Made by a program: the position numbers and the translations under genes. A stretch of DNA of 26,882 nucleotides, taken from contig CAZTMO010000001.1 in NCBI GenBank assembly GCA_964615105.1, positions 1-26,882 on the forward strand. The letters run 5' to 3'. Positions 2,482 to 21,467 of the stretch are shown here, one piece after another. How positions within the stretch are numbered: the first letter of the stretch is position 1; each line of letters starts with the position of its first letter. The DNA is from an uncultured Thermoleophilia bacterium. Its GTDB lineage: Bacteria; Actinomycetota; Thermoleophilia; UBA2241. The notes under the pieces were generated by a model. The model was not told the origin of the DNA, did no database searches, and saw nothing but the letters and a program-made list of their open reading frames with translations.

Positions 2482-3081
2482 TCAGCCGCCCCAGGGCGGG
2501 TACAGCTCGTGTGCGACCCCCACGGCGCTCAGAACCTTGCCGACGACGTGATCGACGGCATCATCCAGGCATCGCGGGCGGTTGTAGAAGGCTGGCATCG
2601 CGGGCAGGACCATCGCCCCGGCCTCGGACGCCTCGAGCAGACGGCGAAGGTGGATCGAAGAGAGCGGCATCTCCCTGGGGACGAGGACCAGCGGACGCCG
2701 CTCCTTCAGCGCCACCATGCCCACCTTGTGGATGAGCGTCTCGGTCATGCCGAGCGCGATCGCCGCCGCCGTCGACAGGGAGCACGGGCAGACGATCGCC
2801 GCGTCCGGCGCCGCCGACCCGCTGGAAGGAGGCGCGGCCAGATCGCCGGGAAGATACACGTGCGCCTCGGCTTGCGCCGCGTCAAGCAGGCGGCGCGTCA
2901 CCTCCTCGCGACCGGTCACCGTCAGATCGAGCTCGTGACGCACGACGTCCACGCCGACGTCCGAGATACACAGCGAGAGGCGGCGACCAGCGGCCGCCAA
3001 CGCGCCGAGCAGGCGCAGCGCGTATGGCGCCCCGCTGGCGCCAGTGATGCCCACAAAGACTGTCGACGGCGCGGTGTTCAT
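2482..3081 (-). CDS. ubiX: Flavin prenyltransferase UbiX (makes prFMN)
   Basis: Start refined to ATG 3081 (MNTAPSTVFVGITGASGAPYA). Motifs: GSAAPDAAIVCPCSLSTAAAIALG, ALKERRPLVLVPREMPLSSIHL and PAMPAFYNRP. Confidence 0.95.
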   Translation of the reverse strand: MNTAPSTVFVGITGASGAPYALRLLGALAAAGRRLSLCISDVGVDVVRHELDLTVTGREEVTRRLLDAAQAEAHVYLPGDLAAPPSSGSAAPDAAIVCPCSLSTAAAIALGMTETLIHKVGMVALKERRPLVLVPREMPLSSIHLRRLLEASEAGAMVLPAMPAFYNRPRCLDDAVDHVVGKVLSAVGVAHELYPPWGG

Positions 3082-3103
3082 AACGGATGCGATTCTATCA
3101 GGC

Positions 3104-3733
3104 TCACGGAGGGGCCCGCAGACCGGCCAGCACACGGTGAGCGGTCGCTTCAGACCCACCGGCGACCGCCACGGCGACCGGGACCGCGCGCCGGCGCGCC
3201 GCGATCACGACGAGGTCATCCGAGGCACGACGCCAGAGTCTCGCCCCGCGCCAACGGCGTGACAGGCGATCCCAGGTCCCCGCACCGGGAAGCCGGCCTG
3301 CGCCCACGTGAAGGATGATCAAGCCTTCCCCGTCGGTGAACGAGACCCGGTACCCGCGGTGCCAGGTCTGCGGATTAGGGAGTACGCTGCCGTCGCCGAC
3401 GGCGACGTACGGCGCCGCCAGCCCGTAAGCGACCGGCAGCCAGGTCGGGACGAGGACACGGTCGAGGCCGGAGCCCCGTCTCGCTTCGCCGACCCAGTGC
3501 CCGCCGCCGTCGGCCCTCTTCAGTCCTGGCGGCAGGGCGCCGCCCGGGTGCGAGGACCGGAACGCCTGCTCAACCGACGTGGCGGAAGAAGCCGGCTGAG
3601 GGTCAGACGTGCAGCCGCCAAGCGCGACCGCGACCCACAGCGTCACGACGACGAACGCGAACGCCACATTGAAGGCAACATGCGCCGCCGGGTGCACGGT
3701 CTTCCCCATCGCCCTCCTCTCATCCTCGGTCAC
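3104..3733 (-). CDS. Hypothetical lipoprotein of unknown function
   Basis: Part of ORF 3104..3952. Possible starts are GTG 3733 (after GGAGGGAG) or ATG 3709 (after AGGAGG). A hydrophobic stretch VAFNVAFAFVVVTLWVAVA is followed by the lipobox-like LGGC (Cys codon 3611-3613). No family recognised. Confidence 0.6.
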   Translation of the reverse strand: MTEDERRAMGKTVHPAAHVAFNVAFAFVVVTLWVAVALGGCTSDPQPASSATSVEQAFRSSHPGGALPPGLKRADGGGHWVGEARRGSGLDRVLVPTWLPVAYGLAAPYVAVGDGSVLPNPQTWHRGYRVSFTDGEGLIILHVGAGRLPGAGTWDRLSRRWRGARLWRRASDDLVVIAARRRAVPVAVAVAGGSEATAHRVLAGLRAPP

Positions 3734-3867: not shown

Positions 3868-5253
3868 ATGGCCCTCGACCTTCTCGCGATCGCACGTGAC
3901 CTTGTCGCCGTCGACACGCGCTCGAGCGTGTCCGACGCCGCCGCGGTCGCACTGCTCACGCCCCTTTGTCGCGACGTCGGGCTGGACGTCGTCACGCAAT
4001 CCGAACTGCGCGACGGCGTGAAGCAGTTCAATCTGGTGGCAACACGCCGCGAGGGCAGCGAGGCTCCGCTCTTGCTCGCCACGCACCTCGACACGGTGCC
4101 TCCCGGCGATCATGCCCTGTGGACGGTGTCGGGGGGAAGGCCGTTCGCTCTCACCGAACATGACGGGGACCTGTACGGTCTGGGCGCCGCCGACGTCAAG
4201 CTCGACTTCCTCTGCAAACTGGCAGCCCTCGACCGGTTGCGTGACGAGACGTTCAGGCGACCCGTCGTACTTGCCGGCACGTACGGCGAGGAGACTGGAC
4301 GCTATGGCGCCCATCTGCTCGTGCGCCGGCTCGAACCGCTGCCCGCGATGGCCCTGGTCGGAGAGCCGACCGACCTTCAGGCGTGCCCCTCGCACAAGGG
4401 CTATGTCGAGGTCCACGTCGCCGGGCGGAGGAGTGGCGCGACGGCATGTGACGCGTCGCCCCGTTGGCGCCTGCGCTTCTCCGGAGTGGCGGCGCACTCG
4501 TCGCAGCCCGACCGCGGCGTCTCTGCCTGCGACCTGCTTGTCGACTCTTTGCCGGGCCTCCGGCGTGCCGGTATCACGGCGGTCTACGAGGCATGGGGCG
4601 GCGAGGTGATGAACCTCGTGGCGCCGGTCGCCGAGCTCGTGGTCGGTGCCCCGGCAGCGCCGCACGTGCCGTCCGCCGTCATCTCCCCAGCCGACCACGA
4701 AGCGGCGGACTGGTCCCCGGCGCTCGTCGCGGCCCTCGAGCGGCTCCACACCGCCACGGCGGCTCTGCGCCGGCGTCTGGCCGCCTGGACCGACGACGCC
4801 TTCCGTCCTCCGTACAGCACCGTCAATAACGGCAGACTGCGACTCGCCGCCGATCATCTCGAGTACGCCTGCGACACGCGCACCCTGCCCGGCGATGCCC
4901 CACGCGAAGCGCTCGAGGACTACTTGCAGGACCTTCCCGCCCTGCGGGTGCCAAGCGTGGACCTGCGTGTGGACACGCGCTTCGCCGCCCCCCCGTTCGC
5001 CGCGCGCTCCGGCTCCGCTGTGCTTCGCGCGCTTCGGGAGACCATCGCCGATGTCGGGCTGCCGCCCACGGACGAGATCAAGAGCGGCACCACTGAGGCG
5101 ACCGTCTACGCGCAGGCGGGTATCGACACGGTCGTCTTTGGCCCCGGCCTCGCCACGGGCAACATCCACAAGCCGGACGAGCGTGTGCCCATCACGCACC
5201 TGCACGCCGCCGTGGACGTCTACGAGGGTGTCGTGCGGCGACTCTGCCTCTGA
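3868..5253 (+). CDS. M20/M25/M40 metallo-amidohydrolase (ArgE/DapE-like deacylase)
   Basis: The metal-ligand motifs appear in order: ATHLDTVPPG, LYGLGAADVK, YGEETG, LVGEPT and GNIHKPDERV. The dimerisation-domain motif GVAAHSSQP is present. This is the only plus-strand gene. Confidence 0.9.
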   Translation: MALDLLAIARDLVAVDTRSSVSDAAAVALLTPLCRDVGLDVVTQSELRDGVKQFNLVATRREGSEAPLLLATHLDTVPPGDHALWTVSGGRPFALTEHDGDLYGLGAADVKLDFLCKLAALDRLRDETFRRPVVLAGTYGEETGRYGAHLLVRRLEPLPAMALVGEPTDLQACPSHKGYVEVHVAGRRSGATACDASPRWRLRFSGVAAHSSQPDRGVSACDLLVDSLPGLRRAGITAVYEAWGGEVMNLVAPVAELVVGAPAAPHVPSAVISPADHEAADWSPALVAALERLHTATAALRRRLAAWTDDAFRPPYSTVNNGRLRLAADHLEYACDTRTLPGDAPREALEDYLQDLPALRVPSVDLRVDTRFAAPPFAARSGSAVLRALRETIADVGLPPTDEIKSGTTEATVYAQAGIDTVVFGPGLATGNIHKPDERVPITHLHAAVDVYEGVVRRLCL

Positions 5254-5602: not shown

Positions 5603-5995
5603 TCAGGCGGGCCTTGTCGGAGGGTACTCCGGGTACGAGAACACGTACACCATACTCATCGGCTCCGCGCTGTCGTTGACCACCCCGTGGGGCACGCCCG
5701 CGGGGATCAGGACACCCTGGCCGGCCCGGTATGAGACGCACTCGTCGCCGATCGAGAGCTTCCCCTCGCCCTCCACGATGTAACACAGCTCGTCCACCTC
5801 GTGGACCATCTGGTTGGTGTTGGCGCCCGGCTGCCACGTCGAGAACCCAAGCATCGTCGCCGAGGCGCCGTTGAGCGGGCCCGAGACCAGCTCGCACACC
5901 CAACTGCCGTCCGGCAGGTCGGTCCGCTTGCCCTCGCTGACGTCGACCACCTTGACGCGCTCGGTCCAGCGCGCAGCGTCCGCGTTCTTGTCCAT
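5603..5995 (-). CDS. Cupin-domain protein (monocupin)
   Basis: 130 aa with motif 1 GANTNQMVHEVDELCYIVEGEG and motif 2 GQGVLIPAGVPHGVVN. The ATG abuts the stop of the upstream gene. Confidence 0.88.
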   Translation of the reverse strand: MDKNADAARWTERVKVVDVSEGKRTDLPDGSWVCELVSGPLNGASATMLGFSTWQPGANTNQMVHEVDELCYIVEGEGKLSIGDECVSYRAGQGVLIPAGVPHGVVNDSAEPMSMVYVFSYPEYPPTRPA

Positions 5996-6997
5996 TCAGA
6001 TCACCAGCGCTCCGTCCTTGATGAGCATGCGCCCTTCAGCCTCGAGGCTGATGTTGCGCAGACAGCCGTCCAGGTGCAGGGCGCTGTGGCTTTGACCTCC
6101 GGGGTAGCAGTGCGCGTTGTCGCCGAGGGCGAAGTGGATCGTGCCGAGCAGGCCCTTCTCGGAGGCCGAGCCGCTCGGCGACTTCGTGCTCGTGCCCATG
6201 GCGAACTCGGCGACGACGTTGGCGTTCTCGTCCGAGCCGGCGACGACCGCCTTGAGGCGCTCGGCCTCGACACCACCTGAGATCTCGACCGCGCGACCGT
6301 CCTTGATCACCCACTTGATGGGCTCGCTGAGCGACCCGAACACGCCCACGCCGAGCATGATGCCGTCAACGACGATGATCCCCTCGGTCTTGTCTTCGAC
6401 GGCGGCGTAAGCGACCTCACCCCACAGCGGGACTGGCCCCATCATCTCGCCAGCGCCCTTGATCGGGACGACCTTGAGCGCCGGACGGTCCTTGATGCAG
6501 ACCTTCACGTCCGTGCCGGCCGGGTTGGTCACGCGGACCCACTCGACGCCGTCCAGTGCCGCCATCAGCTTCTCTGTTCTGGCGACGGTCTCGAGGATGT
6601 CGTCCTCGGTGAGATCCCAGTCAGCCATGCCCTCTTCGATAGACCCGATCTTGGCGCCGTTCTTGACGCTGGCGGCCACCGGGTTGACGTGCGCGAACCG
6701 GTTGGCCCACTCCAGGTTCGTGGTGATGATGATGACGTCGGACGCCTCCATCGCCGCGGCGAGGTTCTTGGCCGGCTCCATAGGGACTTTCATCGACGCC
6801 AGAGCTGCGCTCACATGATGCGAGACGTCGGCGACGACCGGGTACGCACCGAGCGACACGGCGACCCCGGCCACCGCCTCGGCTTCGCGGCGGTGATCCT
6901 CGTCGCAGATGATGAGCACCGCGTCGCCCGCCTTGACGGTGAAGCAGGTCTCCACTACCAGCCGGGCGCCCTTGATGAGCGTCGTGTAGGACTTCAC
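5996..6997 (-). CDS. M29-fold (aminopeptidase T / AmpS-like, short type) metallohydrolase
   Basis: The start is probably GTG 6997, 6 nt after AAAGGGG. Motifs: VKAGDAVLII, VRVTNPAGTDV, PLWGEVAYA, EGIIVVDG, VAEFAMGT, SEKGLLGTIHFALGDN and LHLDG. Confidence 0.8.
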   Translation of the reverse strand: MKSYTTLIKGARLVVETCFTVKAGDAVLIICDEDHRREAEAVAGVAVSLGAYPVVADVSHHVSAALASMKVPMEPAKNLAAAMEASDVIIITTNLEWANRFAHVNPVAASVKNGAKIGSIEEGMADWDLTEDDILETVARTEKLMAALDGVEWVRVTNPAGTDVKVCIKDRPALKVVPIKGAGEMMGPVPLWGEVAYAAVEDKTEGIIVVDGIMLGVGVFGSLSEPIKWVIKDGRAVEISGGVEAERLKAVVAGSDENANVVAEFAMGTSTKSPSGSASEKGLLGTIHFALGDNAHCYPGGQSHSALHLDGCLRNISLEAEGRMLIKDGALVI

Positions 6998-7064: not shown

Positions 7065-9404
7065 TCACTCCGCTGCCCGCTTCTTTCGCAGCGCCTCAAG
7101 CACTCTCTCGCGCGTCATCGGCAACTCATGCAGACGGATGCCCACGGCGTCGTAGACGGCGTTGGCGATGGCCGGCGCGGTGGGAACGAGGCCGGGCTCA
7201 CCGATACCCTTGGCCCCGAACGGTCCTTTCGTCCCGATACTCTCGACGCAGATGGCCTGCACTTCGGGCATATCGCCGATGTTGGGGATCTTGTAGTCGA
7301 GGAACCGGTCGTTGACGATCCTGCCGTTCTCGTGGACGAGCTCTTCCATGAGAGCGAAGCCGATCCCCTGCGCGACTGAGCCTTCGATCTGACCCTCGGC
7401 CATCGTCTGGTTGATCGTCGTTCCCGTCTCGTGCGCGGCCACGACCTTGAGCACCGTGACTTGACCGGTCTCCGGGTCGACCTCGACTTCGGCTGCCTGC
7501 GTGCCGAACGAGAAGTTGGGGATGTTCTTGGCGAAAGCCGTCGGGATCGTGTATCCCTCGGGCAGGCGGTCGACGAAACGACCCTTGCCCGAGATGGTGA
7601 TGCCGTGCTCGTTGACGGAGTGGTTCACGATCTCGGAGAGGTCGTGCTTCTCCGCCGCACCCTTCGCCCAGATCTTGCCGTCCTGGACAAGGACGTCCTC
7701 GGGAGCGACCTCGAGCATCTCGGCGGCGGCAGCGACGAGATTGCGCCTCGCGTCTTTCGCGGCAGCCAGGACGGCGTTGCCGTCCATGAAACTCGCGCGG
7801 CTCCCCCAGGAGCCCAGGTCATACGGCGTGAGCTCGGTGTCGTGGGAGAGGACCCTGATCGCACTGAGAGGCACGCCGAGCTCCTCGGCGGCGATCTGCG
7901 CCATCGCGGTGTGGGCACCCTGTCCCATGTCGAGAGCTGACGTGATCAGCGCCACCGTGCCTTCGTCGGAGAGCTTGACGAACGCCTCGGCCGAGTTGTA
8001 GCCGTAGAAGCGACCGCCGCCGCCGGTGTGGACCATGTTGGCCAAGCCGACACCACGCAGCGGCGTCCTGCCCTCAGGAGCTCTCTTCTCCGCCCATCCG
8101 ATGCCGTCGGCCGCCGTCTGCATACACTCCGTCATGGCGCAGCCGCAGACCTCGGCGCCTGTGTGCGTGGTCTGCATGGGCTCGTTGGCGTTCTTCATGC
8201 GCAACTCGAGCGGGTCCAGACCCATGCTCTCGGCGAGCTCGTCGATCTGGACCTCGGTCGCGAACGCTACCTGGGGGTTGCCGAAGCCGCGGAACGCCGT
8301 GCCCATCTGCTTGTTGGTGTAGACCAGCTCGCCGTGAAAGCGCACGTTAGGGACGTTGTAGAGCGTGCCGAACATCATGCTCGAGAAATTGACGGTGGCC
8401 GGTCCCTTGTCGTGGTACGCGCCCGCATCGCCGATGAGCGTGAGATCTCGCACGAGGATGCGCCCGTCTTTGGTCCCTCCGGTCTTGAGATGCAGCTTGT
8501 ACGGGTAGCGCGTCTTGCTGGTGGTGAACTCCTCGCTGCGGGTATTGACGATGCGCACCGCACGGCCGGTGATCCGCGAAAGGATCGCGGCGATGGGCAG
8601 CTTCATGTCCATGACCAGCCTGGATCCGAACCCGCCGCCCATGGATGAGTTGATCACCCGCACGTGGCTGAGCGGGACGTCGAGCACGCGGGCGATCTCC
8701 TGACGCTGCGTGTGTGGCGCCTGCGTCGTGGTCCAGATCGTCACGCGGTCGTCGACGTCCCACTTGGCGACGCAGTTGGAGGTCTCGAGACAGGTGTGCG
8801 CGACCTGGTGGGTGACATACGTGCCCTCCACCACGTGGTCGCATTCCTCGAAGGCCTTGTCGGGATCGCCAAAGAGGCGATCGACGCTCCACGTGGCGTT
8901 GCTCTCCTTGTCCTCGTGAACGAGGGGTGCGTCCGGCTTCATGGCCTCGTCGACGTCGAAGACGGCCGGCAGCGGCTCGTAGTCCACCACGATGAGCGAG
9001 AGCGCCTCCTCGGCCGTGTCCTCGTCGATCGCGGCTACGGCGGCCACTTCATCGCCAACGTAGCGCACCTTGTCGGTGCAGAGGATGTGCTTGTCGGCCA
9101 GGAACTGATAGAAGCTGAACTTGGTGTCGGGAACGTCGTCCGCCGTGATGACGGCGCGCACTCCCTTGAGGCGCCTCGCCGCCGCCGTGTCGATGGACCG
9201 GATCCTCGCATGAGGATGGGGACTGCGCAGGATCTTGCCGATGAGCATCCCCGGCATGTGATGGTCGCCGGTGTACTTCGCCTCGCCGCAGACCTTGGGG
9301 ATCGCGTCGATACGCGGCAGGCGCTGGCCGATGATCGTCATCTCTCTCTCGACGACCTCGGTCTTCACGTCTGTCTTCACGTCGGTCTCCACGTCGGATC
9401 TCAT
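7065..9404 (-). CDS. Xanthine dehydrogenase-family molybdopterin-binding large subunit (CoxL/XdhA-like)
   Basis: Start refined to ATG 9404, an ATGA overlap with the small-subunit stop. Motifs: RIDAIPKVCGEAKYTGD, GKILRSPHPHARI, MGGGFGSR, AFRGFGNPQ, DMGQGAHT, GSWGSR, EGQIEGSVAQGIG and GPFGAKGIGEP. Confidence 0.95.
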   Translation of the reverse strand: MRSDVETDVKTDVKTEVVEREMTIIGQRLPRIDAIPKVCGEAKYTGDHHMPGMLIGKILRSPHPHARIRSIDTAAARRLKGVRAVITADDVPDTKFSFYQFLADKHILCTDKVRYVGDEVAAVAAIDEDTAEEALSLIVVDYEPLPAVFDVDEAMKPDAPLVHEDKESNATWSVDRLFGDPDKAFEECDHVVEGTYVTHQVAHTCLETSNCVAKWDVDDRVTIWTTTQAPHTQRQEIARVLDVPLSHVRVINSSMGGGFGSRLVMDMKLPIAAILSRITGRAVRIVNTRSEEFTTSKTRYPYKLHLKTGGTKDGRILVRDLTLIGDAGAYHDKGPATVNFSSMMFGTLYNVPNVRFHGELVYTNKQMGTAFRGFGNPQVAFATEVQIDELAESMGLDPLELRMKNANEPMQTTHTGAEVCGCAMTECMQTAADGIGWAEKRAPEGRTPLRGVGLANMVHTGGGGRFYGYNSAEAFVKLSDEGTVALITSALDMGQGAHTAMAQIAAEELGVPLSAIRVLSHDTELTPYDLGSWGSRASFMDGNAVLAAAKDARRNLVAAAAEMLEVAPEDVLVQDGKIWAKGAAEKHDLSEIVNHSVNEHGITISGKGRFVDRLPEGYTIPTAFAKNIPNFSFGTQAAEVEVDPETGQVTVLKVVAAHETGTTINQTMAEGQIEGSVAQGIGFALMEELVHENGRIVNDRFLDYKIPNIGDMPEVQAICVESIGTKGPFGAKGIGEPGLVPTAPAIANAVYDAVGIRLHELPMTRERVLEALRKKRAAE
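9361..9396. repeat. Three-copy 12-bp tandem repeat in the 5' end of the molybdoenzyme large-subunit gene
   Basis: GTCTTCACGTCT / GTCTTCACGTCG / GTCTCCACGTCG, which encodes DVET-DVKT-DVKT on the minus strand. Confidence 0.8.
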
Positions 9405-9886
9405 CGTGACGTCACCTCCTCGCGAAGGTGGTCTCCCGCGGCCTTGACGGCCTCGATGATCTTCACGTAGCCGGTGCACCGGCAGAGGTTGCCCCGCAGC
9501 CCTTCGAGAATCTGTTCCCGGCTGGGATCGGGATTGCGATCGAGCAAGGCCTTCGCCGACATCACCATGCCGGGGGTACAGAAACCGCACTGGATGGCGC
9601 CGTGCTCGACGAAGGCACGCTGTACAGGGTCGAGCGAGCCCCCGCCGGCCAGACCTTCGATCGTCGTGACCTCGCGACCGTCGGCCTCGTGAGCAAGCAT
9701 GAGGCAGGAGTTGACCGGCTGACCGTCGAGCAGCACCGTGCAGGCTCCACACTCGCCCTGGTTACAGCCGTTCTTGGTACCTGTCAAGCCGATGTCTTCG
9801 CGGATGATCTCGAGGAGGGTGCGATGGGTGTCTACGAACAGGTCGTACTCGTCCCCGTTGACCGTTATGTGCAGCTCTCGCTTCAC
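9401..9886 (-). CDS. 2x[2Fe-2S] small subunit of a XDH-family molybdoenzyme (CoxS-like)
   Basis: [28 protein letters not shown] and GNLCRCTGY. The GTG start overlaps the FAD-subunit stop (GTGA). Confidence 0.96.
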
Positions 9887-10764
9887 CCTCGTCCTCCGTT
9901 CGTGACCCAGCCCTGCGCCGCTGTGAGGACGCGCCGCGACATGACCTCCACCAGCACCCGGCGGTACTCCGCCGAGGCGCGGATATCGTCGATGGGGCGT
10001 GACTCCTCGACCGCTTTGGCGGCCGCCGCCGCGATCACGACCTCGTCCAGCTCTCTACCGATCAGCGACGCCTCGGCGGCGCGCGCCCGCATGGGTGTGG
10101 GGGCGACGGCGCCCAGAGCGAGGCGAGCCTCGCGTACGACGACCGACCCCGGCTCGAAGGCGGCGAACAACGCCACGCCGACCGTACAGCAGTCCATGGC
10201 CGAGCGGAACGTCTTCAGATATGTGGCGAAGCTGTCCTGGGGCACGGCCGGCACGCGGACTGCCTTCAGCAGCTCGCCGCACCGCAGAACGGTCTGCCCG
10301 GGCCCCGTGAAGAAGTCCTCGAGCGGGACGACGCGTTCGTCGCTGCCATCGGTGAGAACGGCCTTGGCATCCAGGGCGATCAGGATCGCCGCCATGTCGG
10401 CTGACGGTGCGGCATTGCAGAGGTTCCCCCCGATGGTCGCCCGGGTGCGCACTTGCACCGAGCCGATCCAGGAGGCGGCCCGTGCGATCGCAGGGAAGCG
10501 CTCCATGACCTCAGGTGAATGCTCGATCACGCCGAGCGGCGTGACCGCTCCGATGGCGACGCCGCCTTGGGCGTCCGCCTCGATGAAGTTGAGGCCGGGC
10601 ACGTCACGAAGGCTCACGACCACGTCGGGACGCAGCCCGGCCGCCCTCACCTGTACGAGGACGTCTGTGCCTCCGGCCAAGGCCAGTGCGGAGCCGTTCG
10701 AGCCGGCCAGCACGTCGCAGGCCTCCTTGAGCGAACTCGGACGCGCGTAGTCGAACGCTCTCAT
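9883..10764 (-). CDS. FAD-binding medium subunit of a XDH-family molybdoenzyme (CoxM-like)
   Basis: Start refined to ATG 10764 (MRAFDYARPSSL). Motifs: LAGGTDVL, IGSVQVRTRATIGGNLCNAAPSAD, ALGAVAPTP and IDDIRASAEYR. Confidence 0.95.
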   Translation of the reverse strand: MRAFDYARPSSLKEACDVLAGSNGSALALAGGTDVLVQVRAAGLRPDVVVSLRDVPGLNFIEADAQGGVAIGAVTPLGVIEHSPEVMERFPAIARAASWIGSVQVRTRATIGGNLCNAAPSADMAAILIALDAKAVLTDGSDERVVPLEDFFTGPGQTVLRCGELLKAVRVPAVPQDSFATYLKTFRSAMDCCTVGVALFAAFEPGSVVVREARLALGAVAPTPMRARAAEASLIGRELDEVVIAAAAAKAVEESRPIDDIRASAEYRRVLVEVMSRRVLTAAQGWVTNGGRG

Positions 10765-10789: not shown

Positions 10790-12016
10790 TCATGCCGACC
10801 GGGTCGCCACGCCGGCGCGCGTGTTCTCGATCGGCGCTTCGACCATCGTGATCGCCTCGCGGGCGCACAGGAAGTAGCAGACGGCGCAGGAGTAGCAGTC
10901 CTTCGGCTTGACGAGGACAGCCTTCTTGTCGCGGATCTCGATGCACTCGCAGTGACCCGGCGCGGCGCAGAGACCACACCCGTTGCACTTCTCGAGGTCG
11001 ATCTCGGGGAGCATCGGGATGTAGTGCACCTCGCCCGGGGTGACGATGTACTTGAGAGCGATTCCGCGCATGTCCGCCAACGTCTCGTAGCCATTCTCGT
11101 CCATGAACTTGCGCATGCCGGGCTCGATCTTGGCGAACGCCTTGTAGCCCTTCAGGTAGAGGAGCGAGCAGTACGTGAGCACGGTGGCGCCGTACATGAT
11201 CATCTCCACGGAGTGGCGCCAGTTCATGAGACCGCCACCGCCGGCCAGCGGCAACGTCGGACAGATCGTGCGCATCTGCGCGATATGGCGGTAGGCGAGC
11301 GGCCGGATCCACGGGCCGCAGAGCCCGGCGAAGGACTGGTTGTCGGTCGACGGGTACATCGGCGTGCCGCCGTTCTTGATGTTGAGCGGCGGCAACGACT
11401 GCGGGCAGTTGATGGCCGACACCGCAGCCGCGCCGTTCTTCTCCACCGAACGCGCCACCATCATGGTGTTGGCCTCTGGGGTCATCTTCGGCATCACGGG
11501 GATCTTCACCGCATCGGCCACGGCCTTGCAGACCTGACCGGCCAGTGCCGGGTCCTTGCCTAGGGTGGCGCCGAGCTCGGGCTCTTCGTCGACACCCATC
11601 TGCTTGGCCATGAGCCCCAGGTTCGGACAGCTCATGTTGAGCTCGAGCATGTCGGCGCCGGCCTCTTCGAGCATGCGCGCCAACTTGGCCCAGCCCTCGA
11701 GGTCCTCACCAGGGCCCATCATGTTGGCGATGATCTTGAGCTCGGTCTGCTCCTTGCACTGCTGGATGAGCTCCTGCGTGTCCTCCACGCGCATACGCTC
11801 GCCCGACGGTGAGTAGAAGGCGCCTTCCTTCTCGATGATGTGATAGGGACGCGCGTACAACGGGACCTTGAGAAAGGTGAGCTTCGTGCTGACGGCCGAA
11901 GCGCCGTTCTCCTCAGCCCACTTGATCTTCTCGACCTTGTTCGTCAACTCGGACGAGGCGATGATGAATGGATTCTTAAGCTTGAGGCCTGCGAAGTCGA
12001 CTGACAGGTCAGCCAT
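10790..12016 (-). CDS. preA: PreA-like FMN TIM-barrel oxidoreductase (dihydroorotate/dihydropyrimidine dehydrogenase family) with C-terminal 2x[4Fe-4S] domain
   Basis: Start ATG 12016 after GAAGGGGGAG. Motifs: LSVDFAGLKLKNPFIIAS, LELNMSCPN (active-site loop Cys), PKMTP, SAINC, GLCGPWIRPLA, LAGGGG, CNGCGLC...HC and CYSCAVCYFLC. The symbol indicates similarity, not proven function. Confidence 0.85.
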   Translation of the reverse strand: MADLSVDFAGLKLKNPFIIASSELTNKVEKIKWAEENGASAVSTKLTFLKVPLYARPYHIIEKEGAFYSPSGERMRVEDTQELIQQCKEQTELKIIANMMGPGEDLEGWAKLARMLEEAGADMLELNMSCPNLGLMAKQMGVDEEPELGATLGKDPALAGQVCKAVADAVKIPVMPKMTPEANTMMVARSVEKNGAAAVSAINCPQSLPPLNIKNGGTPMYPSTDNQSFAGLCGPWIRPLAYRHIAQMRTICPTLPLAGGGGLMNWRHSVEMIMYGATVLTYCSLLYLKGYKAFAKIEPGMRKFMDENGYETLADMRGIALKYIVTPGEVHYIPMLPEIDLEKCNGCGLCAAPGHCECIEIRDKKAVLVKPKDCYSCAVCYFLCAREAITMVEAPIENTRAGVATRSA

Positions 12017-13661
12017 CGAGCTCCCCCTTCTGCACGTCGGTTTCCTCTGCGGTCTCTGCAAACCCGGACACCGCCACGGTCTCGCGGGTCGCCTCAAGGC
12101 GCGCGGCGATCTCCAGGTAGCGGCCCTCGACCGCCGCCTGAGCGTCGTCGCGCGCTTCGTCTGTCCAGTAGCCCAGCTCGTAGCCGAACCACGGCTTTCT
12201 CAGGCTCAGCGGCGGCAGGCCCTCGGCCTCCCAGCGCGCCAGCGCCCGTTCCATGAACTCCTTGCGCGGCAGCGACGTCGGCGGGTAGTCCCACTTGCGC
12301 GTCGCGTCGATGAGGATCGCCGACGTCCCCGAGGGCTGCGGGAAGCGCTGTTCGTCGACGTGCGCCTCTGGCGGCGCCGAGGACGGATCGAGGATGCTGG
12401 CCTTGCCGGTGACGATGTGCGTGTCCAGATGTGGGCGCATCCGGTAAGCCATAGCCCAGTTGACGGCATCGGCGTCATTGGGATCGATGTCCTCGTCGAC
12501 GGCGACGATCATCTTGCCGATCGTCGGGTCGAGCGCGACGGCGGCGTGGAGCGCCTGCCAGGGCTGCGACGGGTGTACCTTCTTGAGCTGGATGACCATC
12601 AACCCGTAGCTGCCGGTCATCTCGTGGAGCTGGACGTCGAGGATCCCCGGGATGTTCGCCGACTTCAACCTGTTGAGGTACACGGCGTCATAGGCGAGCT
12701 TGCGGATGAGGCTGCTCTCCGACGGCGGGAACTGGCTCAGGAAGGCCTGGTAGACCGGCGTCTTGCGGTGCATGATCCCCGTCACGTGGAACACCGGATT
12801 GGCGACGCGCGTGCCCATGTAGCCCGTGTACTCGCCGAAGGGCGCCTCCTGCTCGCGGTACGTCGGGTCGACGTATCCCTCGACGACGATCTCGGCGCTC
12901 GCCGGGACCTCGAGATCGACCGTCTGGCACTTGACCAGCTCGATCGGCTCGCCGGCGATGCCGCCGGCAACGGCGAACTCGTCGACGCCGTACGGGATCT
13001 TGGCGACGCTGCAGAGGCCGACGGCCGGCGTGCAGCCGAGGATGATGGCCGCCTCGAGCACCTTGCCGTTACGGCGCGCGCTCTGCAGGTGCAGGCCGAT
13101 GTGTTGGCTCTGATGAGCCATCATGCCGGCCTTTCCGCCCCCCTTCACCATCACCCGGTACGTGCCCACGTTGCGGTCGCCAGTCTCGGGATCCTTGGTC
13201 ACCCAGAAGGGCGAGGTGAAGTACGGCGCGGGGTCGAAGCCCGGCGTGGAGATGGGATGCGGGAACTCGAGAATGCCGTCGTGCTCAAGCAGCCCGTCGC
13301 CGACGTGGATCTCCTCCATGACGGGACCATCGTCGACGAGCACGGGAGGGATGTAGCCTCGGTGGACCGCCGCCCAGCGATCACTGATCTCGTCGGGGCC
13401 ACAGCCGAGCGCCTTCGCGTATACCGCCCGGTTGGCCCCGAGGACACCGACAGCGACGGGGCCGGGGAACGTGCGTCCGTTGACGTCTCTCACGTCCTCG
13501 AACACGAATGCCGTGCGCTGCTCGGCCGGCAGGCCGCGGAACTGCAGCCTGACCAGCGGCATGAGCTCGGTGTCCTTGCAGATCGGCGTGCGCACCCGCC
13601 GGAGCAGGTCTGCGGCCTCCAACGCCGCGATGTACTCGCGAAAATCCTTGTAATAGCTCAC
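12009..13661 (-). CDS. ubiD: UbiD-family prFMN-dependent (de)carboxylase, about 550 aa
   Basis: Start refined to GTG 13661 (GTGA overlap, MSYYKDFREYIAALE). Motifs: RNVGTYR, EIVVEG, EAPFGEYTGY, IVAVDEDIDP and ILIDATR. The symbol is family-level only. Confidence 0.93.
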   Translation of the reverse strand: MSYYKDFREYIAALEAADLLRRVRTPICKDTELMPLVRLQFRGLPAEQRTAFVFEDVRDVNGRTFPGPVAVGVLGANRAVYAKALGCGPDEISDRWAAVHRGYIPPVLVDDGPVMEEIHVGDGLLEHDGILEFPHPISTPGFDPAPYFTSPFWVTKDPETGDRNVGTYRVMVKGGGKAGMMAHQSQHIGLHLQSARRNGKVLEAAIILGCTPAVGLCSVAKIPYGVDEFAVAGGIAGEPIELVKCQTVDLEVPASAEIVVEGYVDPTYREQEAPFGEYTGYMGTRVANPVFHVTGIMHRKTPVYQAFLSQFPPSESSLIRKLAYDAVYLNRLKSANIPGILDVQLHEMTGSYGLMVIQLKKVHPSQPWQALHAAVALDPTIGKMIVAVDEDIDPNDADAVNWAMAYRMRPHLDTHIVTGKASILDPSSAPPEAHVDEQRFPQPSGTSAILIDATRKWDYPPTSLPRKEFMERALARWEAEGLPPLSLRKPWFGYELGYWTDEARDDAQAAVEGRYLEIAARLEATRETVAVSGFAETAEETDVQKGELDG

Positions 13662-15550
13662 AATCCTGCTCCATCCAGTAGGTTCGCGACGATCGGATCG
13701 CTCGTGACCCATTCGAGTCCGAGCCGCTCCAGGGTCTCGGGTGTTGGCATGCTCGTCACCGGGTCGTATCCGCTCGCGGCGTACAGCTCCCGGCGCATGA
13801 GGTCGAAGTCCACGACCTGCCCGGCGATCGGGCCCTCGGGGACCGCCTCCTCGAGGAGCCTCGCCGGGATCGTGTCGTCCTCGGCGCGCAGGCCTTCACG
13901 GACGTTGATGACGCGCTCCAGGGCGTTGATGCGCTCGCCGGCCAGGTACATGTCGGCCGCCGAGAACTCGTGCCCCGTCGCCGTGCCGATGAGCTCGGCC
14001 AGTGTGCCGTCCTGCATGCCGATGGTCAGGAACGCGCACGTGCCTGCGGAGTCGGCCGCCGCGGCTCGCCGGTTGCGGCTGCCGAGCGCGATCGGCGCCT
14101 TGCCCGAGTCCGCGAAGCGGTCGATGTCCGGGTTCGTCAGTTCGGCGGTGACCGTGTAGCCGCCGGCGTGATGGCAGCCGCCCCGGTTGCCGCACCCGTA
14201 GACGAGCGCCATCCCCTTCGCCCCACGAGGATCGTAACCGCCCACCTCCATGCCTTTGGCGTGCATCGCAAAGGCCTCGGAACCCTGGCCGATGCGTTCG
14301 GCCATCGCTTTGCTACCCAGCGCGATCTCAGCGCCGAAGCCGCGTCTGAAGGCGGCGTCCTTGACCAGCTCGATCATCGCCTCCGCGTTGCCGAAGCGCA
14401 GGTCGATGCCCCCTGTGTCTTCCTTGGTGATCAACCCGCGTTCGAAGCACTCCATGGCGAACGAGATGGTGACGCCGACCGAGATGGTGTCGATGCCGTA
14501 GAGATCGCAGAGCTGGTCGGCCGCGATGACCGCGCCCAGATCGTAGACGCCGCACGAGCTCCCCAGCGAGTAGACGGTCTCGTACTCCGGTCCTTCAGAG
14601 GTCGCCCCCGCGTAGGGACCGTCCCGCACGACCGTGACCTTGCTGCACCGCGAGGGACAAGGATCGCCGCACGGAGCGTCCTTAACGAGGTACTGCTCGC
14701 GCAGCATGTCGCCGAGCAGCCCACGACCCTTGTCGACCGGCGCCGACCGCTGCCAGTTGTCGGCCGGCATGATGCCCGAATTGAGCGTCACGGCGACAGT
14801 GCTGACCGAGCCGTGAAGCTTCAGCGGACCAGAGGTGAAGGGGTGCTCACGAAGCTCCTTGACGATCTTCTTGACCGCCGCTTTGAACCCGTCGGGATCG
14901 CCGACGGGCGCGGCCTCTGCGCCCGCGCGCACGACCATGGCCTTGACGTTCTTTGAGCCCATGACAGCGCCGGCGCCGCCGCGGCCGAGCGCACGACGCT
15001 CGTTGAGCAGGCAGGCGTAAGGAACGAGGTTCTCTCCGCCCGGGCCGATGCAGGTGATCGCGACTTGGCCGCGCGGCAGTTCGTCGCGGATGTACTCCTG
15101 CGCCGAAAGCGTATCGAGGCCCCAGAGGTGGCCGGCCGGATGCAGCTTGGCCTTGCCGCCAGTGATCTCGACGTACACCGGCTCGTCGCTACGCCCGGTG
15201 AGGACGATGACGTCGAAGCCGGAACGCTTGATCACCGGTCCCAGATCGCCCCCGGTGATGCAGAAGAGATAGAGCCCGGTCTGAGGCGACTTCGTCGCCA
15301 GGGCGGCCCGAGCAGAACCCGGGGCCGTCGTTCCGCTCAGGGGTCCGGAGGCGAAGATGAGCGGGTTCTCCGGACTCAGCGCGTCGGTCCCTGCGGGCAG
15401 CATGTCGAACAGGTAGCGGGCGGCAAGGCCGCGGCCGCCGACGAAGCTTCTCGCGGCGGCCGCATCGAGATCCTCGACACGCTGCTCGCCGCTGCCGACG
15501 TCGACGACGAGAACCTTGCCCCAGAATCCGCCCACAGGGAACTGCCCCAT
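13658..15550 (-). CDS. aor: Aldehyde:ferredoxin oxidoreductase (AOR/WOR) family tungstoenzyme catalytic subunit, paralog B
   Basis: ATG 15550 lies 6 nt after AAGGAG (alternative GTG 15556). Motifs: GGRGLAA, KSPQTG, GRGGAGAVMGSKNVKA, EGPEYETV, CDLYGIDTIS, KGMEVGGYDPR, RGGCHH and DSAGTCAF. Confidence 0.95.
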   Translation of the reverse strand: MGQFPVGGFWGKVLVVDVGSGEQRVEDLDAAAARSFVGGRGLAARYLFDMLPAGTDALSPENPLIFASGPLSGTTAPGSARAALATKSPQTGLYLFCITGGDLGPVIKRSGFDVIVLTGRSDEPVYVEITGGKAKLHPAGHLWGLDTLSAQEYIRDELPRGQVAITCIGPGGENLVPYACLLNERRALGRGGAGAVMGSKNVKAMVVRAGAEAAPVGDPDGFKAAVKKIVKELREHPFTSGPLKLHGSVSTVAVTLNSGIMPADNWQRSAPVDKGRGLLGDMLREQYLVKDAPCGDPCPSRCSKVTVVRDGPYAGATSEGPEYETVYSLGSSCGVYDLGAVIAADQLCDLYGIDTISVGVTISFAMECFERGLITKEDTGGIDLRFGNAEAMIELVKDAAFRRGFGAEIALGSKAMAERIGQGSEAFAMHAKGMEVGGYDPRGAKGMALVYGCGNRGGCHHAGGYTVTAELTNPDIDRFADSGKAPIALGSRNRRAAAADSAGTCAFLTIGMQDGTLAELIGTATGHEFSAADMYLAGERINALERVINVREGLRAEDDTIPARLLEEAVPEGPIAGQVVDFDLMRRELYAASGYDPVTSMPTPETLERLGLEWVTSDPIVANLLDGAGL

Positions 15551-15552
15551 GC

Positions 15553-16701
15553 TCACTCCTTTGCCAGCGCCTTGCGATACAGGCGCTCGAGGTCGGCAGG
15601 CGACGCGTTACGCACGTTCAGCCTGTAGTTGACGACTTTCGTGCACTGCTCGACCAGTACGGGGATCTCTTCGTCGGTGACGACAGCCGGGTCCAGGGTG
15701 GTCGGGAAGCCCACGGCCTCCATGAGACTCCAGAGGCGATAGAGCAGCTCCTCGGCGAGCTCGGCATCGTCGCCCTGCTCGCCGAGCAACCTCGCGATCG
15801 GGGCGATCTTGGCGCTGGCCACCGGCAGGTTGAACTCCATGGCGTACGGCAGCATGATGCCGGTGGCCAGCCCATGAGACATGTGGAGCCGTCCCAGTGG
15901 CTGCGACAGAACGTGGGCGAGACCCGGCAGCGACGTGCCCGTCGCCATGTTCGCGATCGTGCTGGCCTCGAGCATGCGCTGCTTGGCGCCGAGATCGCCG
16001 GTCAACGCCGCTCTGGGCAGACTGTCGAAGATCGTCGCCGCGGACGTCGCGGCCAAGCCGTCCGAGAAGTCGGTCGCGCCGACCGACCAGATCGCGTCCA
16101 GCGCATGCGCCAGGGCGTCCATCCCGGCAACCAGCGCCGGCCACGCCGGAAGGCTCTCCATGAGTCCGCCGTCCAGGATCGCGACGGTGGGGTACGTGCG
16201 TTCGTCGAGGATCGACATCTTGAAGCCGCGCGCCTCGTCGGTGAGGATCGTCACCTTCGAGACCTCGGTCCCCGAGCCCGCGGTAGTGGGGACGGCGATC
16301 ACCGGGAACGGCGCCTTGGCGGCCTTGTTGAAGCCCTCGTAGTCGGTGAGCACGCCGCCGTTGGCGGCCACGAGGGCGATTCCCTTACCGGCGCACATCG
16401 GGCTTCCGCCCCCCAGAGCTATGACCAGGTCGCAACCCTCCGCCTTGAAGACCTCGACGCCGGCAGCGACGGTGCGCACGCCGGGGTCTTCCTCGACTTG
16501 GTCAAACAGGACATAGGGCAATTCCGCCTCGTCCAGGAGGCCGGTGACGCGGCTCGTCACGCCCGCCGCCGACAGACCGGCGTCAGTACAGATGAACGCC
16601 TTGCTGCCCCCGGAGGCGCGCACCTGCGCCGCGACGGCCCCGATGCTGCCCAGGCCGTGCACGATCCGAGTAGGCATGAAGAAGAGCTTCGGCTGCGACA
16701 T
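15553..16701 (-). CDS. Iron-containing (group III) alcohol dehydrogenase
   Basis: The start is probably ATG 16701 after GGGGGA. Motifs: FFMPTRIVHG, LGGGSPM, VPTTAGSGTEVS, GMDALAHALD and GLAHVLSQ...SHG. Confidence 0.93.
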   Translation of the reverse strand: MSQPKLFFMPTRIVHGLGSIGAVAAQVRASGGSKAFICTDAGLSAAGVTSRVTGLLDEAELPYVLFDQVEEDPGVRTVAAGVEVFKAEGCDLVIALGGGSPMCAGKGIALVAANGGVLTDYEGFNKAAKAPFPVIAVPTTAGSGTEVSKVTILTDEARGFKMSILDERTYPTVAILDGGLMESLPAWPALVAGMDALAHALDAIWSVGATDFSDGLAATSAATIFDSLPRAALTGDLGAKQRMLEASTIANMATGTSLPGLAHVLSQPLGRLHMSHGLATGIMLPYAMEFNLPVASAKIAPIARLLGEQGDDAELAEELLYRLWSLMEAVGFPTTLDPAVVTDEEIPVLVEQCTKVVNYRLNVRNASPADLERLYRKALAKE

Positions 16702-16731
16702 CGATCCCCCAGTCATCAGACTCTTGTCTTA

Positions 16732-16759
16732 AGCATAGTCTATCGTCCAGTATTATGAA
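16732..16759 (-). promoter_or_regulatory. Candidate internal sigma70 promoter (TTCATA-N16-TATGCT) for the adh-to-cupin genes
   Basis: An AT-rich patch overlaps the gntR stop, with -35-like TTCATA at 16754-16759 and -10 TATGCT at 16732-16737. The predicted start is near 16725, about 25 nt upstream of the adh ATG. Confidence 0.5.
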
Positions 16760-17715
16760 TCGGACAAGTCGACCTCGAGGACATCGTCTGCTCCGGCCTG
16801 CCCGCGGACGTCCTCAGGCTCCAAGCTGACGAGCGCAGTACCGTCACGAACGGCTCCGCGCGCGGCCGCTTCACCAGTCAGCGCGTCCCAGAACGTCCCA
16901 CCGTTCTCGTGGCTCCTCGTGAGAAATCCGCGATGCTTGTACCGGTCGGAGCGGTAGTAGACCTCCGCCAGATCGACCACGCGGGCGTCCGACGTGTAGA
17001 CGGTGAGCGTCAGTTTGAGAAGCGAGGTCAGCAGATCCACTTCGAGCAACCTCGCCTGCTCGTCGTCGGCGGCCACCGCCTCGAACATCTGCGAAGCCCA
17101 ATCGACCTTGAAGCCGGTCCGCTTCTCGATCAGCACGATGAGGGGTTCCTTCTCAAGTTCGCTCAGCGAGAGACACGCGCCCACCTCGTACGGGACGTAG
17201 TTGGTCAAGACGGCCAGCGGCCGGTCGCCCACGAGCCGCACACGTTGCACGTAGAACAGGTCCGCGTCTTCGCCGATCGCGAACGTCTCAGCGAGGTCCG
17301 GCGTTGGTTTCACGAGCCTGAACTCGACCACGCGGACGCGCGTGTCGGGCCCGATGTGGATGAGATCCTCCAAGCTCCCGCTGATGTGCGGCGTCGCGTC
17401 GTCGGCAAGCTCCTCCGAGACGAACGAGCCCTTCCCCTTGACTCGCCGGATCAGGCCCTGGTCGTCGAGCATCTGGAGAGCCTGGCGCACCACCACACGG
17501 CTCACGCCGAAACGCTTCGTGAGCTCCGCCTCGGACGGCAACTGGCGCCCAGGCGCGAGCTTGCCCGCGATGATTTGCTCTTTGAGGTTCCGCATGACCT
17601 GGTAGTAGAGGGGGATCCCATTGCGACGACTTGGCCTCCCCCTGCGGGTCGTCGACAGCCGGCCGTCGCCGGCGGCAGCTCCCGGCCCGCCCTTGGAGCC
17701 CCACTGTCCACTCAT
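16753..17715 (-). CDS. GntR-family transcriptional regulator, HutC subfamily (wHTH plus UTRA)
   Basis: ATG 17715 lies 7 nt after AGGAG. The HTH reads IPLYYQV...LPSEAELTKRFGVSRVVVRQALQMLDDQGLIRRVKGKGSFV. The UTRA region includes VQRVRLVGDRPLAVLTNYVP and YYRSDRY. Confidence 0.95.
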   Translation of the reverse strand: MSGQWGSKGGPGAAAGDGRLSTTRRGRPSRRNGIPLYYQVMRNLKEQIIAGKLAPGRQLPSEAELTKRFGVSRVVVRQALQMLDDQGLIRRVKGKGSFVSEELADDATPHISGSLEDLIHIGPDTRVRVVEFRLVKPTPDLAETFAIGEDADLFYVQRVRLVGDRPLAVLTNYVPYEVGACLSLSELEKEPLIVLIEKRTGFKVDWASQMFEAVAADDEQARLLEVDLLTSLLKLTLTVYTSDARVVDLAEVYYRSDRYKHRGFLTRSHENGGTFWDALTGEAAARGAVRDGTALVSLEPEDVRGQAGADDVLEVDLSDS

Positions 17716-19839: not shown

Positions 19840-20246
19840 GAGGCACCTCCCCAGGTGAGCGCCCCTTCGGGACACCACTTGACACAGAGCGGATCACCGT
19901 CGCACAGGTCGCAGATCATGATGCGCCTGTCGACGGCGTCCTGGTGGACGTTCGGGCAGGCGTCGAGACAGGCGCCGCAGTCGGTGCACTCCTCCTGGAT
20001 GAAGCGCACGACGCCGGCCTCCTCGTCCCAGACGAGCGCTTCCTGCGGGCACGCGTCGACGCAGACTCGCTCGTGCGTCATGTCACAGACGGAGCACTGC
20101 ATGGGCCCAAGGTGGATACCCGGCTGTCGCGAGACCTGGATGCACGCCCCGGATGGCTGAACGCGGCCAAGCTTGTTCAGCGAGCACACGCCCGAGCACA
20201 TATCGCAGGCGATGCACTTCTCGACATGGAACTCGATGTAGTTCAT
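19836..20246 (-). CDS. 4x[4Fe-4S] electron-transfer subunit (DmsB/AorA-like)
   Basis: Start ATG 20246 (MNYIEFHVEK). 136 aa with CIACDMCSGVC, CSVC...CVDACP, CTDCGACLDACP and CDLC...CVKWCP. Translationally coupled to AOR paralog A. Confidence 0.93.
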   Translation of the reverse strand: MNYIEFHVEKCIACDMCSGVCSLNKLGRVQPSGACIQVSRQPGIHLGPMQCSVCDMTHERVCVDACPQEALVWDEEAGVVRFIQEECTDCGACLDACPNVHQDAVDRRIMICDLCDGDPLCVKWCPEGALTWGGAS

Positions 20247-21432: not shown

Positions 21433-21467
21433 ACCGAACACCTTCCTTCGTTAAGTGGGTGACGGGC

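Follow-up and report, generated by a model that had tools for sequence, protein, structure and literature searches.

What does a protein that public records call an aminopeptidase do inside a gene cluster for the breakdown of a heterocycle? The question is raised by a stretch of 26,882 nucleotides from an uncultured Thermoleophilia bacterium (contig CAZTMO010000001.1 of assembly GCA_964615105.1), referred to below as the window. Its gene at positions 5996 to 6997 encodes a protein with the fold common to M29 aminopeptidases and the dioxygenase NicX, and is called here the NicX-like gene. The original prediction, made from the sequence of the stretch, had proposed a ring-opening amidohydrolase. 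According to our analysis, which leads us to this reading with moderate confidence, the protein would be an oxygen-independent, two-metal C-N hydrolase that opens a reduced pyridone ring in vitamin B6 catabolism, together with a cupin. A non-peptidase hydrolase of heterocycle catabolism fits every computational test that was run; the opening of a lactam specifically, over an acyclic amide or a cupin-assisted role, is our proposal.

The open reading frame is real, running on the minus strand from GTG to TGA over 333 codons for amino acids, and its GTG start yields the N-terminus MKSYTTL that is common to all homologues. A 333-aa protein identical to it is already on record, and the host genome (2.19 Mb, 81% complete) carries one copy of the gene. 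Pfam family PF02073 was matched at 42 bits (cut-off 27), with only protein residues 139–310 aligned to profile positions 190–366 of 406. A comparison with NCBIfam gave no model for the protein. Family PF26233 ('NicX') is carried by homologues in precomputed annotations; the direct Pfam search did not report it for the window protein, even at E values up to 10. Source annotations of the homologues read 'leucyl aminopeptidase (aminopeptidase T)', and both this label and the 'NicX' name of PF26233 are probably misleading for most members.

Fold and kinship were examined with a family profile built on alignment A1, which holds 50 sequences including 13 orthologues and 36 more distant relatives. 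Against the PDB, the profile matched NicX (7cn3) with E = 2e-28 over NicX residues 17–342, nearly its full length, and the peptidases PepS, AmpS and AmpT at 5e-14 to 5e-8 (PepS at 5e-14). The profile was needed for significant matches, as a phmmer search with the single protein reached PepS only, and insignificantly (E = 0.2). The AlphaFold2 model of the protein had a mean predicted local distance difference test (pLDDT) score of 94.9. Foldseek ranked NicX first (template modelling (TM) score 0.78–0.80), followed by PepS, AmpT and AmpS, and then by CgnB/CgnE (TM score about 0.5), whose sequences the family profile did not reach in the PDB search and which were matched by fold only. The originally stated fold kinship to AmpT, NicX and CgnB/E is thus borne out by structure comparison, but the closest relative is NicX, the 2,5-dihydroxypyridine dioxygenase, and not AmpT. 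The wider family comprises 743 representative clusters at E values up to 1e-10.

NicX of Pseudomonas putida KT2440 (PDB 7CN3/7CUP, PF26233) is the closest solved structure as well as the closest solved sequence, with 350 aa compared with 333 aa here; both proteins belong to pyridine-ring catabolism beside a Mo-hydroxylase pathway. The M29 peptidases PepS (4ICQ), AmpS (1ZJC) and AmpT (2AYI) have their fold in common with the window protein, along with a GTD motif and the complete set of five metal ligands (E, E, H, H, D). However, identity to them is about 15%, the window protein is about 75 residues shorter, and they serve peptide turnover whereas the gene context here is catabolic. CgnB and CgnE of crocagin biosynthesis (PDB 6ZSV/6ZSU) are distant proteins of the same fold that were also recruited away from peptidase activity. 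They are 12% identical to the window protein and bind peptides in a pathway for ribosomally synthesised and post-translationally modified peptides. The window protein keeps the complete M29 ligand set. The nearest paralogue outside the orthogroup, P0124 (L085:2634-3641, 46% identical), has on one side a bis-molybdopterin guanine dinucleotide (bis-MGD) oxidoreductase and on the other a gene of the Amdase/Asp-Glu-racemase type. Close by are genes for an amine oxidase, a cupin and an ABC transporter of the branched-chain type, which makes this another catabolic, non-peptidase context within the family.

All motifs quoted in the original prediction were found: WGEV (E194), AEFAMG (E264), SEK (E280), TIHFALG (H288) and HLD (H308/D310). 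Five of these residues, E194, E264, H288, H308 and D310, fall on M29 metal ligands; the Glu of SEK, which had been counted with them, is conserved but lies outside the six canonical M29 residues. The five ligands are invariant in 84 orthologues, and no more than two of the 36 more distant relatives lack any given one of them (conservation of at least 94%). The orthologues, which come from both cluster types described below, all keep H103, D163, R171, E194, E201, D211, E264, E280, K281, H288, D293, N294, Y298, H308 and D310. The M29 two-metal ligands lost in NicX are each retained by 34 to 36 of the 36 sampled distant relatives.

NicX binds one Fe(II) through His265, Ser302, His318 and Asp320 (PMC7910607). 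Only half of this set is kept in the window protein: H308 and D310 correspond to His318 and Asp320, but E264 replaces His265 and A290 replaces Ser302. In return, E194 and H288 restore the two-metal set of the M29 family. Of the residues that hold the substrate in NicX, His105 has an invariant equivalent in H103; opposite Glu177 and His189 stand V176 and P188, in a loop of uncertain alignment. Judged by alignment, the protein is a NicX in overall sequence with what appears to be the two-metal site of an aminopeptidase, and its predicted metal content, taken from the ligand set, is two metals.

Seven residues after the ligand His, where M29 peptidases have Tyr, the protein has Ala (A295), as had been claimed; profile alignment to PepS, AmpS and AmpT agrees, and N294 is nearly invariant instead. 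The M29 Tyr is part of the 'EEHYHD' motif, in which mutation of any residue abolishes aminopeptidase activity (PMC7023490). Its loss had been taken as a mark of this particular gene, which it is not, because the absence is near family-wide (Tyr stands in only one of the 36 more distant relatives, which have about 320 aa) and extends to NicX. Among 36 anaerobe-type orthologues, residue 295 is Ala or Ser with a single exception (Ile); in 48 Chloroflexota-type orthologues it is His (46), Tyr (1) or Ser (1). Three residues past A295 stands the invariant Tyr298, carried by a two-residue insertion specific to the orthogroup; it might be a stand-in for the M29 Tyr.

Gene context was compared across genomes. 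A GTDB scan with one genome per species gave 326 relatives, and context was taken from the best 80 with 10-kb flanks. Neighbours within 10 kb were called by tblastn with the window proteins and the proteins of two Chloroflexota loci, and the counts below refer to the 45 well-flanked loci, which have at least 6 kb on both sides of the NicX-like gene. These fall into anaerobe-type loci, at 60% identity or more (n = 23), and Chloroflexota-type loci, at 52–59% identity (n = 22), the latter from Thermomicrobiales, other Chloroflexota, Gaiellaceae and some Bacillota.

A small cupin gene was found in all loci of both types (23/23 and 22/22). In 80 of 82 loci it comes next after the NicX-like gene and in the same orientation, and in most of these its start codon overlaps or abuts the stop codon of the NicX-like gene. 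Together the NicX-like protein and the cupin are the constant unit of the clusters. The cupin conserves H65, E69, H103 and N107 (alignment A3). Its first motif is unusual, with a single His (H65-x3-E69) in place of HxH; the second is normal (H103, N107), and a C-terminal YPPT is invariant in A3. One copy, in locus L018, diverges completely past the first motif and looks frameshifted. Complex prediction of the NicX-like protein (A2) with the cupin (A3) scored 0.00 in both runs and is uninformative on binding either way.

Around this constant pair, the two cluster types differ sharply. The PreA-like reductase and the UbiD decarboxylase occur in 23/23 anaerobe-type and 0/22 Chloroflexota-type loci; a luciferase-like oxidoreductase and a class II aldolase-type protein occur in 0/23 and 22/22. 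The two sets are never mixed. The large subunit of the Mo enzyme was found in 15 of 23 anaerobe-type loci and in all 22 of the other type. Aldehyde:ferredoxin oxidoreductases (15/23), the M20 deacylase (13/23) and a LUD/CCG iron-sulfur protein (6/23) are confined to the anaerobe-type loci, with 0/22 for each in the Chloroflexota-type. Thus a reductase and a decarboxylase always accompany the NicX-like/cupin pair, but they come from unrelated families in each cluster type. Such non-orthologous replacement of both enzymes, read from the gene content, points to the same chemical steps in both. The orthologues were found in catabolic clusters only, as all 45 well-flanked loci hold the cupin, a reductase and a decarboxylase; the original prediction had named frequent close homologues outside heterocycle catabolic clusters as evidence that would count against it, and none appeared among these loci. 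Four loci from metagenomes or metagenome-assembled genomes, of Anaerolineales, Syntrophomonadaceae, Thermodesulfobacteriota and Aerophobetes, with orthologues at 61–69% identity, share the order PreA-like, UbiD, (3-hydroxyacyl-CoA-dehydrogenase-type gene), NicX-like, cupin.

The luciferase-like oxidoreductase of the Chloroflexota-type loci lies nearest to F420-dependent classes, with scores below their cut-offs. Mlr6791, a B6 decarboxylase of Mesorhizobium loti, shares its superfamily with the class II aldolase-type protein, which scores 61 bits to it; a closest relationship to Mlr6791 was rejected, as uncharacterised 'aldolases' score higher (109 bits).

The neighbours place the clusters in vitamin B6 catabolism. 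In the window, the class V aminotransferase has the pyridoxamine-pyruvate transaminase (PPAT) family NF046070 as its best family and M. loti 2z9u as its best structure (1e-80). The ATPase of the ABC importer passes NF047930 (676.5 bits, cut-off 670); the permeases are just under the cut-offs of NF047928/NF047929, and the binding protein scores 372 bits against NF047927 (cut-off 400). Both sets of genes lie at least 13 kb from the NicX-like gene, outside the 10-kb counting range within which a B6 marker was found in 7/23 anaerobe-type and 22/22 Chloroflexota-type loci. The Chloroflexota-type markers include a 4-pyridoxolactonase (NF047925, 289 bits), an FHMPC dehydrogenase (NF042925, 394 bits), a PPAT (NF046070, 434 bits) and a B6 binding protein; these families head the lists, at scores below the curated cut-offs. 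In L003, one of the four loci from metagenomes or metagenome-assembled genomes, the dehydrogenase-type gene has the M. loti FHMPC dehydrogenase (PDB 4om8) as a match at 4e-78, and acyl-CoA dehydrogenases score far lower. As NCBIfam cut-offs were mostly unreached, these neighbours are to be read as relatives and not as proven orthologues; on their sequence affinities, we assign the clusters to vitamin B6 catabolism.

The clusters share the upstream PPAT, lactonase and FHMPC dehydrogenase with the M. loti pathway, in which, once the decarboxylase has acted, MHPC oxygenase cleaves the ring and 2-(acetamidomethylene)succinate hydrolase performs the last hydrolysis. Two Chloroflexota loci were annotated gene by gene, and no flavin oxygenase or alpha/beta hydrolase fitting these two enzymes was seen there. 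The NicX-like/cupin unit seems to take their place in the pathway, with a Mo enzyme, a reductase, the NicX-like protein and the cupin standing where M. loti uses an O2-requiring flavin oxygenase and an alpha/beta hydrolase.

What the NicX-like protein would act on is suggested by the genes before it. It lies directly after the Mo-enzyme genes, as originally stated, with a gap of 67 nt; this link holds in the window but is not universal among the anaerobe-type loci. Beyond the Mo enzyme, the PreA-like reductase is closest, in the PDB comparison, to the FMN/pyrimidine domain of pig dihydropyrimidine dehydrogenase (DPD). It keeps the catalytic Cys671 as well as Asn668 and Asn736, which we take to be pyrimidine-binding residues, and has Arg in place of Asn609. 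The DPD variants C671A and C671S in the PDB differ exactly at the aligned column of the catalytic Cys. Such a site fits a cyclic, uracil-like enone-lactam substrate, perhaps one bearing a carboxylate, if the alignment is a guide. The Arg at the Asn609 position could be a carboxylate-binding change. No gene for a PreT-like NAD(P)H/FAD subunit is present in the window.

We propose the following route, in which the chemistry, the order of steps, the substrate and the bond that is cut are all predictions. B6 vitamers would be imported and converted to a hydroxymethylpyridine dicarboxylate by the PPAT-like transaminase, the two tungsten aldehyde oxidoreductases and the alcohol dehydrogenase. UbiD/UbiX would remove one carboxyl group. 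The XDH-type Mo enzyme would then hydroxylate the free carbon beside the ring nitrogen to give a 2-pyridone, a methylated and carboxylated 2,5-dihydroxypyridine. From 3-hydroxy-2-methylpyridine-5-carboxylate, hydroxylation at the free alpha-carbon would lead to a 2,5-dihydroxypyridine with substituents. NicX acts on substrates of this class, and the recruitment of its fold would thus be explained. The DPD/PreA-like flavoenzyme would saturate the enone double bond, as in uracil. In the NicX/M29-fold enzyme, a metal-activated water would hydrolyse the C-N bond of the ring (lactam or enamide), the role that dihydropyrimidinase or enamidase has in other pathways. Finally, the cupin would tautomerise, decarboxylate or deaminate the labile product of ring opening.

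Metal amidohydrolases open the rings of dihydropyrimidines, dihydroorotate and tetrahydro-6-oxonicotinate. The original prediction had stated that the cluster holds no such TIM-barrel enzyme, and a six-frame search of the window contig gave 0 matches to Amidohydro_1 and Amidohydro_2; amidohydrolase-like open reading frames turned up in just two of 84 loci, at a distance of 8 kb or more in each. Therefore, the predicted two-metal NicX-like protein is the best candidate for ring opening. The pyridine ring is reduced and then hydrolytically opened in Eubacterium barkeri, by enamidase, and in Aspergillus nidulans, by HxnT/HxnM; for enamidase, the cyclic imidase HxnM and dihydropyrimidinase alike, the ring that is hydrolysed is an N-heterocycle made partly saturated by the preceding Mo-hydroxylase and reductase steps (PMC9304392). 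The window follows the same logic with its Mo enzyme and DPD-like reductase, but these enzymes are functional analogues only of the proposed role, having unrelated folds (TIM-barrel amidohydrolase or imidase families). The active-site residues of the NicX-like protein are the same in clusters with oxygen-sensitive enzymes and in the probably aerobic Chloroflexota clusters, so the reaction should not need O2.

An ordinary M29 aminopeptidase that lies beside a catabolic operon by chance is what the public labels and a PF02073 score above the cut-off would suggest. The partial Pfam match, the shorter chain, the missing essential Tyr and the synteny with the cupin and catabolic genes in 45/45 loci from several phyla make this barely credible, and a housekeeping aminopeptidase was rejected on the partial match, the Tyr and the conserved synteny. 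An Fe(II) dioxygenase of the NicX type, cleaving a 2,5-dihydroxypyridine-like B6 intermediate with O2, has the closest solved relative on its side, together with the expected product of Mo-hydroxylation and the H103/His105 correspondence. However, NicX uses O2, and the window gene belongs to clusters of the anaerobe type, where the same active-site residues occur beside oxygen-sensitive enzymes (tungsten aldehyde:ferredoxin oxidoreductases and Fe-S/ferredoxin-type reductases). Two of the four iron ligands are gone, two extra carboxylate/His ligands have appeared, and NicX Glu177 and His189 lack a conserved counterpart in the alignment, which is uncertain in that loop. We consider this explanation very improbable and rejected it on the loss of iron ligands and the oxygen-sensitive cluster enzymes.

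Two further alternatives carry more weight. The protein may hydrolyse an acyclic amide later in the pathway, for example in an N-acyl or carboxamide intermediate whose ring is already open, with ammonia, acetate or acetamide as the product set free; it would then be the counterpart of 2-(acetamidomethylene)succinate hydrolase. Ring opening would in that case fall to the cupin or another enzyme, or the product of the reductase would come apart by itself. Ligand set and context are equally compatible with this, acyclic amide bonds are what M29 enzymes cleave, the cupin accompanies the protein everywhere and may have kept a metal site, and the canonical B6 pathway ends with an acyclic enamide hydrolase (reference list of PMC3538738). 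Most clusters, however, offer only two constant proteins for ring opening, of which the cupin belongs to a class that is rarely hydrolytic, and in the Actinomycetota (Thermoleophilia-type) clusters an M20 deacylase is already on hand for an acyclic amide; we judge this explanation unlikely. Somewhat less probable still is a non-hydrolase, that is, a metal-dependent isomerase, tautomerase, decarboxylase or hydratase, or a non-catalytic binder of a B6-derived intermediate like CgnB/CgnE. The fold does serve non-hydrolytic roles in NicX and in the peptide-binding CgnB/CgnE, and the M29 catalytic Tyr is missing from its aligned position. But the invariance of the five dinuclear ligands and of H103, D163, R171, E201, D211, E280 and N294 in 84 orthologues argues for catalysis at a hydrolase-type metal site, and CgnB/CgnE are related through the fold only.

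Several observations weigh against a ring-opening hydrolase as we propose it. The Tyr that is essential in M29 enzymes is absent at the aligned position, so that the hydrolytic competence of the NicX-like protein is an assumption. As eight of the 23 anaerobe-type loci are without the Mo enzyme, a 2-pyridone lactam can be the obligatory substrate only if a hydroxylase gene lies outside these loci. The Mo enzyme of the XDH type might oxidise an aldehyde instead, pyridoxal or that of FHMPC. In the Chloroflexota-type clusters, the luciferase-like protein may not correspond to the PreA-like reductase but act as an alcohol dehydrogenase or an oxygenase. The ring opener could be the cupin or, in the Actinomycetota (Thermoleophilia-type) clusters, the M20 enzyme. 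TIM-barrel amidohydrolases are encoded elsewhere in the host genome, among them a 506-aa Amidohydro_1 protein (197 bits) on another contig (G000:C310:1344-2405), and this dihydropyrimidinase-like enzyme from outside the cluster may conceivably take part in the pathway.

In six of the eight anaerobe-type loci without a Mo enzyme, a LutB/LutA-like iron-sulfur protein is encoded directly upstream instead. This protein has about 676 aa with LUD, Fer4 and CCG domains, and its gene stands immediately before the NicX-like gene; it was seen in L001 (7967-9997), L014, L015, L020, L023 and L030-L032. The M20 deacylase gene, at 47–71% identity, is found only in loci from metagenome-assembled genomes of Actinomycetota (Thermoleophilia-type), and in none from other phyla.

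Apart from the M20 gene, every gene of the window is encoded on its minus strand. Along the map, the cluster begins with the ABC importer and the class V aminotransferase, followed by the two aldehyde:ferredoxin oxidoreductases with the GntR/UTRA regulator and the Fe-alcohol dehydrogenase, UbiD, the PreA/DPD-like flavoprotein, the Mo enzyme in three subunits, the NicX-like gene and the cupin. Beyond the cupin lie a MoaD/ThiS-like gene, the M20 deacylase, UbiX and dxs. Coordinates are collected in the table.

Table. Features of the window, with positions counted from its first nucleotide
Feature	Position	Strand	Basis or remark
NicX/M29-fold gene, candidate C-N hydrolase of the B6 ring-cleavage module	5996..6997	-	333 aa; GTG start at 6997, TGA stop at 5996-5998
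H103 codon, aligned with NicX His105 (substrate-positioning)	6689..6691	-	alignments
E194 codon, equivalent of first M29 Glu ligand; NicX has Phe	6416..6418	-	profile and orthologue alignments
E264 codon, equivalent of second M29 Glu ligand; NicX has His265	6206..6208	-	profile and orthologue alignments
H288 codon, equivalent of M29 His ligand; NicX has Leu	6134..6136	-	profile and orthologue alignments
A295 (6113-6115, M29 Tyr position) to Y298 (6104-6106, invariant), GDNAHCYPGG loop	6104..6115	-	alignments
H308-L309-D310, equivalents of M29 His/Asp ligands and of NicX His318/Asp320	6068..6076 (H308 6074-6076, D310 6068-6070)	-	alignments
Cupin_2 gene, constant partner	5603..5995	-	130 aa; Pfam; ATG abuts the stop of the NicX-like gene
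XDH-family Mo enzyme	7065..10764	-	large subunit 7065 to ~9400, 2Fe-2S subunit 9401-9886, FAD subunit 9883-10764
PreA/DPD-like flavin reductase with C-terminal 4Fe-4S domain	10790..12016	-	best PDB match pig DPD
UbiD-family decarboxylase	12009..13712	-	UbiX partner at 2482-3159
M20 (ArgE/DapE-like) deacylase, possible second amide hydrolase of the pathway	3868..5253	+	family matches
Tungsten-type aldehyde:ferredoxin oxidoreductases (two)	13658-15556, 18034-19878	-	family matches
Fe-alcohol dehydrogenase	15553-16716	-	family matches
GntR/UTRA regulator	16753-17715	-	family matches
Pyridoxamine-pyruvate transaminase-like gene	20263-21441	-	NF046070 top family; PDB 2z9u top structure, 1e-80
Putative B6 ABC importer	21468-26334	-	NF047927-NF047930

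The fold, the ligand set and the membership in the Pfam family are already known. For the predicted reaction, the constant pairing with a cupin and the place in an oxygenase-free B6 pathway, no description was found in the literature searched. The same literature yielded nothing on anaerobic B6 degradation, NicX-like hydrolases or this gene set and no account of B6 mineralisation without oxygen or without MHPC oxygenase, and genes of this kind go unmentioned in a 2026 preprint that deals with B6 catabolites. To our knowledge, only two routes of bacterial vitamin B6 breakdown have been described, both of which require oxygen.

We tentatively suggest, at somewhat less than even confidence, that the NicX-like/cupin pair is the ring-cleaving core of an undescribed O2-independent B6 route. 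Strict anaerobes would use it with the DPD-like reductase and UbiD, whereas in Chloroflexota/Actinomycetota it would operate with the luciferase-like reductase and a decarboxylase of the class II aldolase type. The M29/NicX fold would thereby gain its first hydrolase for a heterocyclic ring, and most members of the 'NicX' Pfam family would be two-metal hydrolases, with the dioxygenase NicX as the exception.

In the biology of B6 breakdown, a ring-opening step is missing for which no better candidate than the NicX-like gene is at hand, and with the cupin it forms a testable enzyme pair whose substrate would be made by defined upstream enzymes. If the proposal is true, heterocycle hydrolysis would be a third chemistry for a fold known for aminopeptidases and one dioxygenase, and the annotation would have to be corrected for hundreds of 'aminopeptidase T' proteins, whose Pfam family carries the name of a dioxygenase with a different metal site.

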